Below, piece after piece: positions 25,912 through 54,551 of a stretch of DNA of 64,000 nt. The notes beneath the pieces are model-generated. The model was given only the letters and a program-made list of their open reading frames with translations. It was not told the DNA's origin and ran no database searches. The translations under genes and the position numbers were made by a program. Location of the stretch: assembly GCA_001816655.1 (NCBI GenBank), contig MHCP01000014.1:27068-91067 (forward strand), in the 5' to 3' direction. Source of the DNA: Candidatus Woykebacteria bacterium RBG_13_40_15 (GTDB lineage Bacteria > Patescibacteriota > Microgenomatia > Woykebacterales > RBG-16-39-9b). Position 1 is the stretch's first letter. Every line of letters begins with the position of its first letter.

Positions 25912-26373
25912 TTAAATGTCTCCGGGGTCGAAAGTTCCAAACTCCACGTGTGTTAAGGCTTCTTTTAACAAGTCAATCGATGGAGCATGATATTCCCGAG
26001 GAGTGAGATCTACCTCCCCCATTCTCAAATGATTAGACATCCCAGAAAGTTGTGATATATCGCTTCTAAAATCACCTGCTTTAGCGTCCAGATCTTCTAC
26101 ATCATCATCCCACTTACTGAAGGCAAAATCTGGCTGTTCTTCGTTGGTCAGCGTTTCTCTAAGAACTCGAAAAACTCCTGGCTCTTTCTCTACAACATCC
26201 ATTTGGTATGGGCCTTTTTCTCGAGAAGCAGATTCTTCCACGCGCGGAATATCTAATGTCATTGGTTTTACTTCGCTTTCCCTAGCTTCAGCCTCTTCTT
26301 GAGATTCTATTTCCTGGGCTTCTGATTCACCCATTGAAGGGATTTCACCGTCCATAAATTTAGAATAACACAA
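25912..26373 (-). CDS. acidic hypothetical protein
   Basis: 153-aa ORF rich in Glu/Asp with no recognisable domain. Confidence 0.3.
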   Translation of the reverse strand: MCYSKFMDGEIPSMGESEAQEIESQEEAEARESEVKPMTLDIPRVEESASREKGPYQMDVVEKEPGVFRVLRETLTNEEQPDFAFSKWDDDVEDLDAKAGDFRSDISQLSGMSNHLRMGEVDLTPREYHAPSIDLLKEALTHVEFGTFDPGDI

Positions 26374-26403
26374 AATTTTTATAAGTCAAAAAAGCTGGAG
26401 CGG

Positions 26404-26515
26404 TTGATGGTTCGACTTCGCTTACCACAAGCCTGGCTATTAAATGGAGCAGGTGAAGGGATTAGAACGCTAAAGCGTTCTGCGACCACTTCGTGGGCTA
26501 CGAACCCTTCCATTT
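26404..26515 (-). repeat. 112-bp insert between the tRNA-Gly 3' end and an 8-nt duplicate of that end, carrying the 22-nt core GTAGCCCACGAAGTGGTCGCAG
   Basis: TGGAGCGG at 26396-26403 and 26516-26523. 22-mer at 26480-26501 is identical to 53432-53453. Confidence 0.4.
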
Positions 26516-26590
26516 TGGAGCGGCGGACCGGATTTGAACCGGCGACCTTCTCCTTGGGAAGGAGACATTCTACCGCTGAACTACCGCCGC
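26516..26590 (-). tRNA. tRNA-Gly (anticodon CCC)
   Basis: Reverse complement GCGGCGGTAGTTCAGCGGTAGAATG.CTCCTTCCCAAGGAG...GGTTCAAATCCGGTCCGCCGCTCCA. Confidence 0.85.
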
Positions 26591-26647
26591 GTGAATTCTA
26601 CCCAAGAAACATGAGCCTAAAAATTATACTTTATTAGCGGGTTTTTG

Positions 26648-27232
26648 TCACGGGACGACTAAGGTTTGCCCTGGAGTTATAAGTGGTTCACCGTTCGATA
26701 ATATACCAATTTTTCCGGGATTCATATCACGTATCTTAGTCCAATCAAATCCGTTTCCGTAGAACTTTTCCGCAATGCTCCAAAGACAATCGCCAGACGC
26801 AACAGTGTATTCTCGCACCTTTGTATCTGCTTTTGGAATATTCAATACCTGGTTTGGATTGATAAGGTTAGGGTTTGCTATTTTATTTTCAGTTGCTATC
26901 AAAACCCATTTGTACCCATCCTCGTAATATTTGGTTGAAATATCCCAAAGACTATCACCAGCCACAACTGTGTGCTTTGCTGGCAACTTGGTTGTTGTTT
27001 GTTTTGACGTATCCTGCTTTGGCGTTTCTTTGGCGGTTGATTTTTCGGTTGACTGATCGTTTGATTGTTCTGTCTTCGTACTTTCAGTCTGCTTTGCCGG
27101 CTGCGTAGCTGGTAGGGCGTTGAAAATAACAAAAAGACCGATTATGACAACAATCGCGATAATTCCCGAAATTATAGTTGAACGGGAAGACTGCCAAAAG
27201 TTAACCTTAGGTTTTCTACCTCTTCGAGCCAT
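26648..27232 (-). CDS. LysM domain-containing membrane-anchored protein
   Basis: Two LysM repeats (HTVVAGDSLWDIS..., YTVASGDCLWSIAEKFYG) after a TM anchor and a low-complexity Thr/Lys/Gln linker. Confidence 0.75.
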   Translation of the reverse strand: MARRGRKPKVNFWQSSRSTIISGIIAIVVIIGLFVIFNALPATQPAKQTESTKTEQSNDQSTEKSTAKETPKQDTSKQTTTKLPAKHTVVAGDSLWDISTKYYEDGYKWVLIATENKIANPNLINPNQVLNIPKADTKVREYTVASGDCLWSIAEKFYGNGFDWTKIRDMNPGKIGILSNGEPLITPGQTLVVP

Positions 27233-29801: not shown

Positions 29802-31502
29802 ATGGAAAATAAATTTACAAACAAGGAAGTAGCAGCGTTATTGCGAAATGTTTCAGCTGCATACCAAGTTAAAGGACTCAACTATTTTCAAATACGTGCC
29901 TACGATACTGCTTCAGATGCTATAGAAAATACAGCTTCTGATATCAAGACTCTATGGGAACAAGGGAAACTCGATCAGATTCCGGGTATTGGTACTCACA
30001 TAGCAAATTACTTAGATGAGTATCTTACAACAGGTAAAGTTCGCCACTTCGAATCCGTTTTCAGACAAGTGCCAGAAGATATGTTCCGATTCCTCAAAAT
30101 CCCAGGTGTCGGCCCAAAAACCGCAGTTAAAATAGCAAATAGCGGGGTTGTGAGCATAAAAGATCTCGAGGAAAGAATTAAGAGTGGTTGGTTACTCAAG
30201 CATGACTTTGGTCAAAAAACCCTTGATAATATTTTGCGAGGAATAGAAGAGTTCAATCGAAAAAGCGATCGCTACTTGCTTCCAATAGCCGGAGAAATAG
30301 CAAAAGATGTAGTTAATTACTTGAAGCAAAATAAAGACGTTGTTTACGCAGATCCTCTAGGCAGTCTTAGGCGGAGATTATCAACTGTTGGCGACATCGA
30401 TATTGCTGCTGCTACAAGAAATCCAAAAGGTGTCTTAAACCATTTCGTAAAATACCCAGGTATTCACGAAGTAATTGAGAAGGGTGACACAACAGCTACT
30501 ATTCTGCATGGAAGTGGCATCCATGCTGACCTTATGGTACAACCACCAAATCACTATGGTTCTCTTCTGCAACACTTTACAGGCTCGAAAAGCCACAATA
30601 TTCATCTCCGTTCCTTAGCAAAAGAAAAGGGCTACTCAATATCAGAGTATGGTGTAAAAGAAATTAAAAGTGGAAAGAGCCTCGAATTTGAAAAAGAGGA
30701 GGGAATATACAAGCTTTTAGGCATGGAAACACCAATACCAGAAATCCGCGAAGATACTGGGGAGATTGAGGCAGCACTCGAAAATAAAATTCCAAGATTA
30801 ATCGACTTAAAAGACATCAAAGGAGATTTACATACCCATTCTTCCTGGAGTGATGGGCAAAATACTATTTCGGAAATGGCAGAGGCTGCAGCGCAACTGG
30901 GTAGAGAGTACATTGCCCTAACAGATCATAGTTACCCGAGCCTTAAGTTTGAGCAGAGGATAAAAGACATAGAACAATTTAATTACTCACAAGATAAAAT
31001 TAGAGTAATTTATGGACTCGAAGTAAATATAAATGTTGATGCAACATTACAAATAGCAGATGAGATACTAGAAAGACACGAGTTAATTTTGGTTTCTATA
31101 CACACTAGCTTTAGGCAGGAAAAGGACTTGATGACGAAGAGAATAATTAAGGCTTTGGAGAACCCTAACGTTGACATATTCGCTCATCCAACCGGAAGAC
31201 TTTTATTAGAGCGAGAAGGTATTGAAGCTGATTGGGAGCAAATTTTCAAGGTAGCAGCAAGGACTGGTACATTGATTGAAATTGACGCATATCCAAATAG
31301 ATTGGACCTTCCAGACACGTTAGTTAGGGAAGCTAAGCGTTTTGGGGTTCGGTTTACAATTTGTACTGATGCGCACCATACGGATCAGTTAAATTTGATG
31401 GAATATGGAATTTCAGTGGCTAGAAGAGGTTGGTTAGAACCAAAAGACGTAGTTAATACCTTGCCGTTCGAGAAGCTACGAGATATACTTAAATTCGATT
31501 AA
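29802..31502 (+). CDS. polX: DNA polymerase X family protein with C-terminal PHP phosphoesterase domain
   Basis: HhH motifs (GIGTHIANYL, IPGVGPKTA), PolX catalytic region and PHP motif LHTHSSWSDG...ALTDHS. Confidence 0.8.
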   Translation: MENKFTNKEVAALLRNVSAAYQVKGLNYFQIRAYDTASDAIENTASDIKTLWEQGKLDQIPGIGTHIANYLDEYLTTGKVRHFESVFRQVPEDMFRFLKIPGVGPKTAVKIANSGVVSIKDLEERIKSGWLLKHDFGQKTLDNILRGIEEFNRKSDRYLLPIAGEIAKDVVNYLKQNKDVVYADPLGSLRRRLSTVGDIDIAAATRNPKGVLNHFVKYPGIHEVIEKGDTTATILHGSGIHADLMVQPPNHYGSLLQHFTGSKSHNIHLRSLAKEKGYSISEYGVKEIKSGKSLEFEKEEGIYKLLGMETPIPEIREDTGEIEAALENKIPRLIDLKDIKGDLHTHSSWSDGQNTISEMAEAAAQLGREYIALTDHSYPSLKFEQRIKDIEQFNYSQDKIRVIYGLEVNINVDATLQIADEILERHELILVSIHTSFRQEKDLMTKRIIKALENPNVDIFAHPTGRLLLEREGIEADWEQIFKVAARTGTLIEIDAYPNRLDLPDTLVREAKRFGVRFTICTDAHHTDQLNLMEYGISVARRGWLEPKDVVNTLPFEKLRDILKFD

Positions 31503-49966: not shown

Positions 49967-51070
49967 TTAACTTGCGAGTTTTTCCCAGGGGAAGCAGTCT
50001 CGTCCGAAATGACCATAGGAAGCGGTTTTCTCGTAGATGGGTTTTCTTAAATCTAACGCTGCCAATATACCGTTTACCGATAAATCCATTAGGTTCCAGG
50101 CGAAGGATTCAATTATCGAGACCTTCTTTTTCTCTGTTCCAAAGCAATTAACTGCTTTTACCAGGGGGTCTCTTTGTCCAATTACATAAGCTATTTGTAC
50201 CTCAGCCATTTCGGCTAGTTGTGCGGCAACGATGTTTTTAGCTAAAAACCTCGCTGCATACGCAGCAGAGCGATCCATCTTAGTTGGATCTTTTCCAGAA
50301 AACGCTCCACCACCAACTCGCCCGAAGGCGCCGTACGAATCAACTATTATTTTGCGACCAGTGACTCCTGTGTCAGTTGCTGGTCCTGGGGTAATCCAAA
50401 TACCCCCGCCATTAACAATTAGGTCTTCTTTAGGGGTTTTAAGACCAAACGTTTCCAATACAGGTAATACAACGAATTTCAAAAGATCTTCCTTGAGTTG
50501 AAAATTACTAATATTCTCTTCGTGGCAAGCAGCTAAAACCACCCTTTCTAATGATTTTGGTTTATTATTTTTGTATTCAAAGGTAACCTCACTTTTTCCA
50601 TCTGGCCTCAAATAGGGAATTATTTTTTTCTCTCGAACGGCATCTAATTTTTCAACGAGTTTGTGGGCAATACTTATTGGAAGGGGCATTAGTTCTGGCG
50701 TTTCACCTACCGCATAGCCAAACATCATACCTTGGTCTCCGGCGCCTCCAGTATTAACGTCGGCGGAAATTTCAGGAGATTGTTCATGAATGTAAACTTG
50801 AATATCGCTTTCTGGAGAAAATTCGAATTTCTTGTTCGTATAACCGAGGCGTTTAATTACGCCCTGGGCGATTTTTTTATAATCCAAGCTCGCTTTTGTT
50901 GTTAATTCTCCAGCAATGACCATTCGATTTTTTGTCACTAAGGTTTCCACAGCTACTCTGGAGCAGGGGTCTTGGGAGATGGCTGCATCAACAATAGCAT
51001 CAGAGATCTGGTCGCAGATTTTGTCTGGATGGCCGGCGGCGACAGATTCTGAAGTAAAGTACTTATACAC
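49967..51070 (-). CDS. metK: S-adenosylmethionine synthase
   Basis: FTSESVAAGHPDKICDQISDA..., GGGAFSGKD. GTG start with AAGGAGG RBS. Confidence 0.9.
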   Translation of the reverse strand: MYKYFTSESVAAGHPDKICDQISDAIVDAAISQDPCSRVAVETLVTKNRMVIAGELTTKASLDYKKIAQGVIKRLGYTNKKFEFSPESDIQVYIHEQSPEISADVNTGGAGDQGMMFGYAVGETPELMPLPISIAHKLVEKLDAVREKKIIPYLRPDGKSEVTFEYKNNKPKSLERVVLAACHEENISNFQLKEDLLKFVVLPVLETFGLKTPKEDLIVNGGGIWITPGPATDTGVTGRKIIVDSYGAFGRVGGGAFSGKDPTKMDRSAAYAARFLAKNIVAAQLAEMAEVQIAYVIGQRDPLVKAVNCFGTEKKKVSIIESFAWNLMDLSVNGILAALDLRKPIYEKTASYGHFGRDCFPWEKLAS

Positions 51071-51094: not shown

Positions 51095-51230
51095 TTAAAA
51101 AACACTTCCCTCAAAGAGAAGTGCCACTAAACAGTTCCCTTTTCGGGCGCATCAATTTTGGCACCCTGCCTGTTTTAGGGTTGCCGCCCTCCGAAGCTTT
51201 ACGCGAAGGAGGGGCTCGAGATGCTTAATA
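51095..51230 (-). ncRNA. SAM (S-box-like) riboswitch candidate plus terminator in the metK leader
   Basis: Minus-strand leader contains GGAGGG..GCAACC and GGTGCCAAAATT, resembling SAM-I/IV core elements. A CACTTCTC-TTTGA-GGGAAGTG-TTTTTT terminator lies just upstream of the RBS. Confidence 0.4.
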
Positions 51231-51288: not shown

Positions 51289-53325
51289 ATGGGTACCGAT
51301 CAGGTTCTTTATTGGGTTATAGGTGCAGCTTCATTAGCAATCATTTACGCTTTAGTTCTTACCCTTAGATTACTGAGGCTTCCAACTGGCGATAGTAAAA
51401 TGCAGGAGATTGCCAAGGCAATTCAGGAAGGGGCAGGTTCTTACTTAAATCGCCAGTATTTTGTTGTTGGAATAGTTGGGGTTGTAATTTTTCTTGTTAT
51501 TTGGTTCCTTATGAAACAACCGACCACTGCGGTTGGTTTTCTAGTTGGAGCGGTCGCTTCTGCAGTTGCGGGCTACATTGGTATGAATGTTGCGGTTAGA
51601 GCAAATGTTAGAACAGCCGAGTCAGCTAAAAGAGGCTTAGCAGCCGCCTTGGGTGTTGCTTTCAGGGGTGGAGCAGTGACCGGTCTTATAGTTGTGGGTC
51701 TGGCACTTTTGTCAGTTGCTCTCTTTTATTTTTTCACACGGGATGTAAAAGCTTTGATTGGTCTTGGTTTTGGTGGAAGCTTGATTTCTGTATTTGCGAG
51801 ACTTGGAGGAGGGATTTATACAAAAGGGGCTGATGTTGGTGCTGATTTGGTTGGTAAGTTGGAGGCTGGTATTCCTGAGGACGATCCCCGAAACCCGGCA
51901 GTAATTGCAGACAATGTTGGAGATAATGTCGGTGATGACGCTGGGATGGCAGCTGATCTTTTCGAAACCTACGCTGTTACCGCAATTGCCGCAATGCTGC
52001 TTGGAAGTCTAGTTTTTCCAGGCAGTAGCAGCGCAATAATTTACCCACTTGCTATTGGCGCAGTTTCTGTCGTAGCTTCAATAATCGGAACATTTTTTGT
52101 CCGGCTTATAGGGAAAAGTATCATGGGGGCTTTATATTTAGGTTTAGCAGCTTCTGGGATACTAGCTAGTATTGGCTTTTGGTTTTTGACATCGTATATT
52201 TGGGGAGGAAACCTGTCCTCTACTCAACCATATTGGATACAAGCTGTCGAAACAAATAGGGTACTACCGTTTTTCTACTGCTCCTTAATCGGAATTTTTG
52301 TTACTTTGGGAATGGTTATTATTACCGAGTTCTATACTTCGAAAAGATTTGGTTCAGTGAAAGCAATAGCTAATGCTTCGCAGACTGGGCATGGGACAAA
52401 TGTAATTACAGGGTTGGCAGTTTCTATGAAGTCTACTCTGGCTCCAATTATTTTAATTTCCGCCGCAATAATGTTAGCGTTCAACCTGGCTAGTCTTTAC
52501 GGAATTGCTATTGCTGCTATGAGCATGCTTTCGATGACCGGGATTATTGTTGCGATTGATGCCTTTGGGCCTATTACTGATAATGCCGGTGGTATTGCTG
52601 AAATGGCAGGATTGCCAGATGATGTTAGAAAAGTAACCGACGAGTTAGATGCAGTTGGAAACACGACAAAAGCGATAACTAAAGGGTACGCAATTGCAAG
52701 CGCCGCTCTTGCAGCATTGGTGCTCTTTGCTTCATTTTCCCAAGATCTTGTAGCGGCTGGAAAAATCCATGTTATCTTCAACTTAGGAGATCCAAAAGTT
52801 TTAATAGGACTTTTTATTGGGGCAGCTCTGCCTTATTACTTTGGAGCGATGGCGATGGAGGCCGTAGGGAAGACAGCAGGCGCCGTTGTTAGTGAGGTTA
52901 GAAGGCAATTCAAGGAAATAAAGGGAATAATGGAAGGAAAAGCGAAGCCCGATTACGCAAGAGCAGTTAAGATTGTTACAGCAGCTGCGCAAAGGGAAAT
53001 GATTGTCCCAGCCTTACTCCCCGTTGTTGTCCCTATCATTGTTGGTCTTTGGCTTGGACCAGAAGCGCTCGGTGGGATGTTGGTCGGTTCAATTGTTACT
53101 GGTCTTTTTGTTGCTATTTCGATGACAACCGGCGGAGCAGCTTGGGATAATGCTAAAAAGTATATCGAAGAAGGTAACCTTGGCGGTAAAGGGAGTGAGG
53201 CCCACAAAGCCGCAGTGACTGGGGATACAGTAGGGGATCCTTATAAAGACACCGCGGGACCTGCTATAAACCCCATGATAAAAGTTATTAACATTGTTGC
53301 TCTTCTATTGGTTCCGTTTCTTTAA
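51289..53325 (+). CDS. hppA: membrane-bound H+/Na+-translocating pyrophosphatase
   Basis: [22 protein letters not shown] and a 16-TM layout. 678 aa. Confidence 0.9.
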
Positions 53326-53513
53326 TCTCTTCGCGGTGTCTTTGCGATAACTACACTCCATTTTAAAATCGTTGGTTTAAAATTACGTTCCATTATCTAA
53401 AAGATACAGCTGGGCCAGCGATAAACCCTATGTAGCCCACGAAGTGGTCGCAGGATTCGAGAGTACCTAAATACTTGAGTGATTAACGAATGGATTTAGT
53501 TATGGAGAATACT

Positions 53514-53576
53514 ATAAAGGTGATCAATATAGTGGCACTTCTACTCGTACCGTTTCTTTAATTTCCTCGGTAGCGT
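53514..53576 (+). repeat. degenerate duplicate of the hppA 3' end (last 15 codons, stop and ~12 nt beyond) with only synonymous changes
   Basis: 53514-53561 encodes [15 protein letters not shown], the same peptide as 53278-53325, with 8 synonymous differences. A 173-bp insert (53341-53513) separates the copies. Confidence 0.7.
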
Positions 53577-53587
53577 TTTTGGTTTAA

Positions 53588-53989
53588 TCAATTCTCTTTT
53601 AGGCTCACGTTGAAAAAACCAGGCATTCCTCTGTAGGGAATAGGTGTTATTCTTTTCGACTCTGAAATAACATAACCATATTTATTTTTTAAGCTCCATC
53701 CTTCTAGCTCTATTAAATCTCTGCTCGCAAGATGCAGTTTAACGTCCTTGTAGAACTCAGTATCGTTTTGATATCGCTTAACATCCTTCAAAAAAGCCTT
53801 TCCTACTATTAAACCAGTTGGTAGGTTTCTAAAACCAAATCTTTCAATTACCTCTGTTTTAGTATCTTTTCTCGCTGCATAAACGTAAAACCATCCTCTA
53901 AAGCTAGTGTTTTTGGTTCTCACTTCAACCTTTTTTCTACCTGAGACTAACAATTCTGCCCAAGGTTGGCTAAGCGCTAGTGCTTTCAT
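53588..53989 (-). CDS. ASCH (PUA-like) domain protein
   Basis: ALSQPWAELLVSGRKKVEVR matches the ASCH N-terminal motif. Confidence 0.55.
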   Translation of the reverse strand: MKALALSQPWAELLVSGRKKVEVRTKNTSFRGWFYVYAARKDTKTEVIERFGFRNLPTGLIVGKAFLKDVKRYQNDTEFYKDVKLHLASRDLIELEGWSLKNKYGYVISESKRITPIPYRGMPGFFNVSLKEN

Positions 53990-54002
53990 ATTAGATTCCA
54001 GC

Positions 54003-54551
54003 TTACTCGGTTGATGCACGATTTTTATTCAACCCTTCTAGTGCCAGTTCGATTGTTTGTGGAATGTTATTTTTGCCGGTATCAAGTACTAGATTAAAAA
54101 ATTTCGGGTTTTCATAGTTATCATTTGAATAGAGTTTTTTGAATTTTGCTCGAAGCTGGTGGCGTCGCTCTTCAATTTCGCGAGGGGTTTCTTTGTGGGT
54201 GTGTTGGCGGGCTAAAATTCTTTTTGTCGCCACTTCTTTGTCGCAAACAAGTAAAATCCTAAAATTGCTCGGCAAATTTCTGGCAAACCAAGCAGAATAA
54301 TGACTATCAACCACGATCTCTTTTTTTGTTTGTAGTTTTTCAAAAATTTCCTGGTCGATTTTTTTATCCACCTCGTCAGGAATTGAGGATTTGTCCCAGA
54401 GAGGGATGTTGTGGTTTTTATGATACGCTCGAAAAAAATCACCAGCAGAAAAAAATTGCCATCCGAGCTTTTCCGCAAGGCCTTTGGCTAGAGTGGACGT
54501 GCCCGTGCCAACATCTCCGGAGACTATAATGTTTTGATATTTCGTGTTCAT
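54003..54551 (-). CDS. P-loop nucleotide kinase (cytidylate-kinase-like/AAA_17)
   Basis: Walker A IIVSGDVGTGTSTLAK. 182 aa. Confidence 0.5.
   Translation of the reverse strand: MNTKYQNIIVSGDVGTGTSTLAKGLAEKLGWQFFSAGDFFRAYHKNHNIPLWDKSSIPDEVDKKIDQEIFEKLQTKKEIVVDSHYSAWFARNLPSNFRILLVCDKEVATKRILARQHTHKETPREIEERRHQLRAKFKKLYSNDNYENPKFFNLVLDTGKNNIPQTIELALEGLNKNRASTE

Follow-up and report, generated by a model that had tools for sequence, protein, structure and literature searches.

How does a gene come to be followed by a second, diverged copy of its own last codons, and what kind of sequence interrupts that copy? The question is raised by hppA, which encodes a membrane pyrophosphatase acting as a proton pump, in a stretch of 64,000 nucleotides (nt) from Candidatus Woykebacteria bacterium RBG_13_40_15 (contig MHCP01000014.1, positions 27,068 to 91,067 of the forward strand; assembly GCA_001816655.1). 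This whole stretch is called the window below, and positions without further label refer to it. The second copy is split by a small non-coding sequence, here termed element E, and we consider it about an even chance (0.5) that E hit the native hppA terminus and that a xenologous terminus replaced the hit end.

The duplicated end of hppA

An earlier note on this DNA had described a repeat of the last 15 hppA codons plus the stop at 53278-53325 and 53514-53561. The repeat is present and the duplication real, but its extent had been underestimated, as 33 nt more (53245-53277) recur at 53400-53432. The last 26 codons and the stop (53245-53325) are thus found again downstream as two pieces, 53400-53432 and 53514-53561. 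The longer direct repeat spans 56 nt (53278-53333 and 53514-53569), including 8 nt past the stop, and is 79% identical; the additional 33-nt repeat is also 79% identical, with synonymous differences only. Over the 15 codons first described, nine rather than the reported eight differ (10 nt), and the statement that all these changes are synonymous holds for the entire duplication (17 of 17 nucleotide differences). The arrangement was found in three independent assemblies, namely that of RBG_13_40_15, an 846-kb contig from the Joint Genome Institute (JGI) and an 808-kb contig from the European Nucleotide Archive (ENA). The 846-kb contig, Ga0214473_10000001, is referred to as L024 (L numbers are our handles for the loci compared).

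The sequence between the repeats had been read as a single 173-bp insert, possibly the remnant of a shrunken integrative element. It proved to be a composite in which a 74-nt spacer (s_a) is followed by 33 nt that form the first half of copy 2 and then by the 81-nt element E, and neither an integrase nor an att-type identity block nor any cargo lies between the copies. Element E splits copy 2 in frame, exactly at a Met|Ile boundary (ATG|ATA), and its first three bases, TAG, follow immediately on the Met codon. When E was excised, copy 2 aligned to copy 1 without gaps over the insertion point (70/89 nt, z = 34 versus shuffles).

Purely synonymous divergence had been taken as a sign of selection-like conservation of the downstream copy, a view that the comparison of related genes does not bear out. 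The last 40 HppA residues do not vary among seven of eight Woykebacteria genes whose overall identity is 76-86%, and the eighth gene has a single conservative V-to-I change; the C-termini of the best 120 homologues are all very similar. Third codon positions are saturated, with all pairs of termini, relics included, being 0.71-0.86 identical. With an invariant C-terminus and saturated synonymous sites, purely synonymous differences are to be expected between any two orthologous hppA ends, and the downstream copy (hereafter the relic) need not be under selection. Within 26 codons the relic carries no non-synonymous change in the window and one in L024, and the relics therefore lost function recently. 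Two other approaches were abandoned: a nearest-neighbour analysis of the 78-nt termini, in which the narrow range of pairwise values left no usable nucleotide-level signal, and the use of truncated HppA proteins as a sign of E in a functional copy, as 120 of the 120 best homologues have intact C-termini.

Codon identity to the closest relative was more informative than nucleotide identity. Identical codons were counted at positions encoding the same amino acid in the closest relative. Between the window and L023, the gene body scored 253/532 (0.48) and the relic 11/25 (0.44), whereas the last 26 codons of the functional gene scored only 7/25 (0.28). Between L024 and its closest relative, L032, the corresponding values were 264/542 (0.49), 11/24 (0.46) and 7/24 (0.29). 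The pooled functional termini (14/49, against an expected 0.48) deviate with P ~0.004, an estimate by normal approximation, and the direction was the same for both relic halves in both genomes. These data show that the hppA relic is young and native-like. Since codon identity is native-like in the relic and lower in the functional end, the comparison indicates that the relic is probably the native end and that the working terminus would derive from another lineage. The earlier proposal of a replacement terminus on the gene, with the displaced original persisting downstream, is supported by these values.

The earlier note had also advised a search for an uninterrupted site in related strains, and such sites exist. 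In L023, L029, L030, L032 and L033, hppA abuts a convergent AAA_17/18 kinase gene, which we take as the ancestral state. Other lineages carry different extra genes at the hppA-kinase junction. The extra gene in the window encodes an ASCH domain and is located elsewhere in the genome in other lineages; its neighbourhood was for this reason of no use as a path to closer relatives. Separately, an HTH_3 gene lies between the hppA relic and the kinase gene in L024 (4838-5695, minus strand) and appears by eye to be richer in G+C than its surroundings, which, if correct, would suggest foreign DNA at the same junction. In Woykebacteria RBG_16_44_10 (L031, MHCT01000016.1) the contig ends 152 nt past the hppA stop, which could be an assembly break at a repeat.

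The earlier note had further asked whether the downstream reading frame is still translated. The small open reading frame (ORF) in question runs from 53490 to 53561 (23 aa), the ATG at 53501 being internal to it, and it is not conserved as coding sequence. Four of its eight E-encoded codons differ from the L024 counterpart, all non-synonymously. With an N-terminal half that changes only in this way, and with no clear ribosome-binding site, it was rejected as a gene. Translation of relic part 1 was likewise dismissed, as an in-frame stop occurs 11 codons upstream and a start codon is missing. Folded as a single RNA, the region 53326-53600 showed no excess stability (z = +0.99). In a protein-level scan of 56 window ORFs, hppA was the only one with a terminal relic.

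A long-range stem coincides with the edge of the duplicated unit. Its two arms (53245-53256, AAAGACACCGCG, and 53332-53343, CGCGGTGTCTTT) pair perfectly over 12 bp and enclose the last 22 hppA codons. Synonymous changes preserve the pairing in L024 (AAGGATACAGC/GCTGTATCCTT) and, with one G-U pair, in L026. The stem may be a structure of the mRNA 3' end or a piece of a mobile unit.

A family of small structured elements and the relics around them

The 22-mer that the earlier note had found to be shared with an insert near a tRNA-Gly gene is exact, at 53432-53453 (plus strand) and 26480-26501 (minus strand), and no such match is expected by chance even if three mismatches are allowed. It comprises the first 21 nt of E and the preceding G. 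It does not mark the boundaries of a large element; it is the 5' module of a family of elements of 37-97 nt, a member of which lies inside the displaced copy. The exact 22-mer occurs in genomes of four GTDB species, two of them Candidatus Woykebacteria, and in 18 metagenome loci. Viral contigs contained neither the 22-mer nor the spacer-relic joint sequence. Covariance modelling recovered 32 copies of E in the fetched loci, which come from Woykebacteria and related metagenome contigs; some of these copies have diverged 5' hairpins. In the window only two copies were found under either of two models (R1 and R2), at 53432-53513 and 26464-26501; weak matches at 30460 and 13539 fall within coding genes and were discarded as chance. 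The spacer s_a was considered as a degenerate E and rejected, as neither R1 nor R2 recognised it.

All copies are non-coding and come as a short form of 37-38 nt or as long forms of 67-97 nt. The conserved 5' module consists of TAGC, a small hairpin (CCAC-GAA-GTGG) and (TC)GCAG. After it comes a 7-bp closing stem (AGnnnnn...nnnnnCT), whose arms enclose either a loop of 3-4 nt, in the short form, or an internal domain, in the long forms, where the conserved strands GAGAGUAC and UUACGGAG flank a variable hairpin. In the long-form copy of the window, TAGCCCACGAAGTGGTCGCAG is accompanied by the closing stem and by an internal domain, GAGAGUAC..UAUGGAG, that carries an apical hairpin. Covariation is seen in the closing stem, where single positions show up to five pair types; pairing extends to 92.9% of cells compared with 83.2% after shuffling, and none of 500 shuffles reached the observed covariation score. 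In a larger alignment, which was itself fitted to the model, 93.4% of cells are paired and ten pairs show double changes; shuffled controls over both alignments gave 81-83%. Some copies have an altered 5' hairpin, such as CCAU/AUGG, which is a compensatory change. Rfam 15 returned nothing for 53200-53700 apart from a chance miRNA match (E = 4.6) and only the tRNA for 26300-26700, and a full-text literature search for the core sequence of E found no paper. A family of such tiny structured insertion elements appears to be undescribed so far.

Insertion of E is precise. Among 29 copies with flanks, position -1 is G in 24 and T in four, position +1 is A in 27 and position +2 is T in 25, giving a preferred site TYG|AT with insertion between G (or T) and A and neither loss nor duplication of the target. 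The element has no terminal inverted repeats and ends in TAGCCC.. and ..NNCT. The G before TAGC completes the interrupted target in six of six cases (TTCG|AAT in the T-loop of five tRNAs and ATG|ATA in hppA); because it fits the target, E was defined as TAGC...CT. Once E was excised, relics aligned across the insertion site in the window, L024, L012, L018, L020 and L006 (z = 5-34). An inversion between the two inversely oriented 22-mers was discounted, as both flanks of each copy belong to one interrupted sequence. Together, these data show that E is a structured, precisely inserted, multi-copy element family of Woykebacteria-like bacteria of the Candidate Phyla Radiation (CPR). The earlier suggestion of a non-autonomous, MITE-like insertion (MITE, miniature inverted-repeat transposable element) comes near the mark for the 81-nt part as a small non-autonomous element and fails for a classical MITE, which would have terminal inverted repeats and a target duplication.

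The locus at 26.4-26.6 kb has the same architecture as hppA. Here a short-form E sits in a tRNA 3' fragment directly after an intact tRNA-Gly(CCC) gene. The two relic halves, AAATGGAAGGGTTCG and AATCCCTTCACCTGCTCCA, pair with each other through their T-stem strands, and the acceptor strand misfits the resident tRNA-Gly. We rejected E as a tRNA intron or as part of a permuted tRNA, as ARAGORN still reported only tRNA-Gly when E was excised. Further along lies a decayed tRNA-Gly relic without E, ending in GAAGTCGAACCATCAACCGCTCCA, which suggests repeated displacement of the terminus at this locus. At another locus (L018, 10400-10520) one more T-arm-like hairpin (CTGGG-ACGAATC-CCCAG) lies upstream of the tRNA-Lys relic that bears E, and this may be the footprint of an earlier event.

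Such relics recur widely. About half of the independent E copies are embedded in a partial, diverged duplicate of the adjoining gene terminus. Protein-gene relics with E were found for hppA (window and L024), sufC (L006), a VanY-like gene (L007), a gene with a SEC-C motif (L009) and a DUF3465 gene (L001); in L016 the relic is of the thyA 5' end, with E antisense to thyA, and five relics are of tRNAs (window, L012, L017, L018 and L020). In L007 the gene end ..MVESGLILEEYLRHFGVV is followed directly by the relic MIDSGLILEEFLQRFGTI. With E excised, each relic reads as a contiguous, ortholog-like copy. The intact copy lies on the 5' side of E in every case, whatever the orientation of the gene, and the 5' boundary of the relic is 4-33 nt from E. 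The remaining copies of E are simple intergenic or gene-end insertions. These observations show that the relics are associated with E and polar relative to it.

Several single copies deserve mention. The DUF3465-like gene carries a long-form E at its 3' end in L001 (198-267, minus strand) and, a few bases away, a short-form E in L010 (393-430, minus strand). In both loci the ORF runs into E and terminates there, which looks like an insertion hot spot or a conversion between forms. Two diverged tandem copies without the 5' hairpin lie 7 nt apart beside a PolX-family gene in L019 (2743-2895, minus strand). In L003 (1504-1574, minus strand) E is antisense between infB and the next gene, and the infB ORF receives its last seven codons and stop from E. 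An exact short-form copy follows a PIN/TRAM-type gene in a metagenome-assembled genome labelled 'uncultured Gammaproteobacteria' (L002, CAYIWY010000007.1); either the family extends beyond CPR bacteria or the contig is mis-binned. Away from these loci, the window also contains a SAM-I/IV (S-adenosylmethionine) riboswitch at 51120-51229 (minus strand; 42.6 bits, just over the gathering score) upstream of metK (49967-51070, minus strand). The features of the two window loci are listed in Table 1.

Table 1. Coordinates of features at the hppA and tRNA-Gly loci of the window
Feature	Position	Strand	Remark
hppA (membrane pyrophosphatase), intact	51289-53325	+	product 100% identical to Ca. Woykebacteria RBG_13_40_15 protein
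Duplicated terminus, copy 1 (26 codons, stop, 8 nt)	53245-53333	+	functional end, probably of foreign origin
5' arm of the 12-bp stem, AAAGACACCGCG	53245-53256	+	codons KDTA; starts exactly at left edge of duplicated unit
3' arm of the 12-bp stem, CGCGGTGTCTTT	53332-53343	+	7 nt past stop
Spacer s_a, 74 nt	53326-53399	+	ends ..ATCT|A
Relic part 1, 11 residues, 33 nt	53400-53432	+	first half of the putative displaced native terminus
Element E, long form, 81 nt	53433-53513	+	covariance-model score 84.6 bits
Relic part 2, 15 residues + 8 nt	53514-53569	+	
ASCH-domain gene	53588-54019	-	between relic and AAA_17/18 kinase gene
Intact tRNA-Gly(CCC)	26516-26590	-	
tRNA relic part 1, AAATGGAAGGGTTCG	26501-26515	-	variable region, T-stem 5' strand, TTCG of T-loop
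Element E, short form, 37 nt	26464-26500	-	in T-loop between TTCG and AAT; 43.2 bits
tRNA relic part 2, AATCCCTTCACCTGCTCCA	26445-26463	-	
Older decayed tRNA-Gly 3'-end relic without E (..GAAGTCGAACCATCAACCGCTCCA), then T-run	26396-26427	-	read directly from sequence

How the terminus may have been exchanged

According to the model that we favour, one copy of E would have inserted into the last 15 codons of the native hppA at ATG|ATA, creating a TAG stop right after the Met codon. A unit from a different Woykebacteria lineage (26 codons, stop and 74-nt tail; 53245-53399) would have come to lie directly upstream of the damaged end. Gene function would have been kept because this foreign terminal unit supplies a working C-terminus, and the xenologous terminus would have been fixed because it restored the gene, while the native end, still bearing E, would persist downstream as a young, undecayed relic. 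Candidates for the joining step are illegitimate joining near E during uptake of related DNA, strand transfer by element ends, or a dedicated cassette.

Several observations weigh against this model. The native-versus-foreign comparison is based on 49 codons only, and about half of the E copies have no relic. The termini are only 78% identical and share no identical run longer than 13 nt, a level of homology insufficient for ordinary RecA recombination. Neither 30 window ORFs nor the ORFs adjoining clustered copies of E yielded a transposase, recombinase or TnpB-like gene, and the mobility of E is therefore deduced from its distribution only. Moreover, the window and L024 are non-sister lineages whose closest relatives (L023 and L032) lack the arrangement, yet the joints (spacer|relic, relic|E and E|relic) are identical in the two, E being 82% and the spacer 84% identical. 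Identical joints in two non-sister lineages make random illegitimate joining unlikely and seem to call for a site-specific step or a mobile cassette. E may have come before the foreign unit, or a cassette may have come before E.

The shared joints, together with the stem at the edge of the unit and the end of the spacer (..ATCT|A, resembling the 3' end of E and abutting a T|A site), suggest such a site-specific step or a mobile terminus cassette. In its full form, this alternative holds that the 155-nt unit 53245-53399 is a mobile gene-end cassette which enters hppA site-specifically at TAT|AAAG and replaces the terminus, with E a secondary insertion in the freed relic. It would explain why tail and joints are alike in two non-sister lineages, why the tail is missing in their closest relatives and ends ..CT|A at a T|A site as E does, and why the left edge of the unit coincides exactly with the base of a stem showing covariation between genomes. 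However, the tail escapes both E models and occurs only at hppA loci, and no recombinase was encountered among the 30 window ORFs. Between the window and L024, the coding parts of this unit have reached saturation (4/25 identical codons), so any shared origin would be old. Relics without E are rare in the window, which is unexpected if cassettes precede E. We regard this alternative as unlikely, though worth keeping in view. It is a longer shot that E is the cis-acting part of a previously unknown mobile system of CPR bacteria which drives terminus replacement, either through chemistry at the element ends that would attach a foreign terminus to the gene hit, or through an attack on native termini guided by E and its gene-matching flanks, to which a synonymously recoded terminus would confer immunity (a natural cleave-and-rescue system).

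A specific version of the latter idea, which we think very improbable, makes E and its gene-matching flanks a selfish targeting module, providing a guide-like RNA for a nuclease or recombinase, with the recoded functional terminus as an immune rescue copy. The functional copy does differ from the relic at nearly all synonymous sites; the short form of E matches a CRISPR repeat in size and carries a 3' hairpin beside the gene-matching flank; and between the window and L024 the relic flanks change in a coding-like manner, first and second positions being nearly unchanged and third positions randomised, though they are untranslatable. This last pattern is more simply explained by relics that are recent snapshots of native gene ends; the window yielded no effector gene, and about half of the E copies have unrelated flanks. 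Little credence can be given to a classical integrase scar of the e14/icd type, in which a prophage or island integrated into the hppA 3' end with a replacement end and was then almost entirely deleted. Such an event would account for a gene terminus duplicated with ortholog-like divergence, for the different extra genes per lineage at the hppA-kinase junction and for the same pattern at tRNA 3' ends, which are typical att sites. It is at odds with the distance of just 74 nt between the copies, with variable genes that lie outside the repeat pair and with the lack of an integrase among the scanned window ORFs; above all, the same architecture at no fewer than eight unrelated genes, including one 5' end and always polar to E, is more than one integrase and one attB could produce. 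Barely credible, finally, is the reading that the copies arose by local tandem duplication and diverged where they lie, or that the contig ends of two strains were wrongly joined in assembly. The tandem arrangement and short microhomologies at some joints speak for it, but non-coding divergence in place would have hit all codon positions rather than synonymous sites alone, the closest relative is not equally related to the relic and to the functional copy, and an artefact would hardly appear in three assemblies.

The genomes of CPR bacteria are tiny and densely packed with genes, and little is known of their mobile DNA. The repeated presence of E in displaced termini of essential genes and tRNAs suggests that these elements, or repair provoked by them, cause xenologous replacement in core genes, terminus by terminus. 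Such transfer would be invisible at the protein level because the amino-acid sequence is unchanged. The combination of relic and element offers a practical marker for dating and tracing terminus replacement, and it calls for caution when gene 3' ends from metagenome-assembled genomes are annotated or used in phylogeny. If the joints shared between non-sister lineages do reflect a site-specific mechanism, there would be a new recombination system to be found.

Element E among known repeat elements

One close comparison is with REP (repetitive extragenic palindromic) sequences of the GTAG type. These are palindromes of 20-40 nt that bear an unpaired GTAG at their 5' foot and occur in more than 100 copies per genome, often in inverted pairs. 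They are processed by RAYT (REP-associated tyrosine transposase), also called TnpA-REP, a Y1 HUH transposase whose gene is usually flanked by REPs. In this processing, central roles fall to the GTAG head and to a CT cleavage dinucleotide (PMC8266576), and GTAG REPs form a broad superfamily often located downstream of genes and sometimes within them (PMC3733652). Like them, E is a short non-coding hairpin element found mostly in intergenic DNA and at gene 3' ends, with a (G)TAG head 5' of a small hairpin and CT at its 3' boundary, and its given strand is the folding strand, as G-U pairs are present. The TAG(C) of E is conserved and followed by a 4-bp hairpin; the preceding G is replaced by T in 4/29 copies. 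Unlike in GTAG REPs, this G derives from the target and the boundary is CT|A rather than C|T; E has a second, covarying stem with a variable apical domain of 3-60 nt, and its copies are not arranged in inverted pairs such as REPINs (REP doublets forming hairpins) or BIMEs (bacterial interspersed mosaic elements). The element is present twice in the 64-kb window and at most three times in a locus of 3-8 kb elsewhere, and no RAYT gene was found among the 30 window ORFs or beside clustered E copies.

Elements of the IS200/IS605 type insert 3' of a fixed motif of 4-5 nt without duplicating it, have subterminal hairpins and are biased towards the lagging-strand template. E resembles their non-autonomous derivatives in lacking terminal inverted repeats and target duplication, in carrying hairpins near both ends and in inserting precisely and in one orientation at a short motif. 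It differs in that it enters within TYG|AT, with motif bases on both sides, and in that its 3' hairpin reaches the very end. The two window copies are oppositely oriented within a region of uniformly positive GC skew (n = 2), and neither TnpA nor TnpB is encoded among the 30 window ORFs. Three further kinds of element were considered and set aside: a classical MITE, given the unlike ends of E and the contiguous target in its flanks; a diversity-generating retroelement, as A occupies only 5/17 (copy 2) or 2/17 (copy 1) of the differing sites and the scanned ORFs include no reverse transcriptase; and an integron attC site, whose RYYYAAC/GTTRRRY core sites are not those of an element ending in TAGC.. 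and ..CT.

Integrative elements that replace gene 3' ends include e14 in icd, ICESt1 and related cis-mobilizable elements (CIME) in fda, and tRNA-targeting islands. As in integration of the e14/icd type, incoming DNA would here supply a working terminus and the displaced native end would persist as a direct, ortholog-like repeat; in contrast to it, there is no integrase or cargo between the repeats, many genes are targeted, and a small structured element lies in the displaced copy. The Rickettsia palindromic elements, which are retained in frame within functional genes, are similar in being small, palindromic and able to sit inside genes of reduced genomes, RNA genes included. They differ in that the gene copy hit by E is non-functional and has an intact copy beside it. 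E is thus a variant among the known kinds of small repeat element, with an unusual and repeatable link to xenologous terminus replacement.

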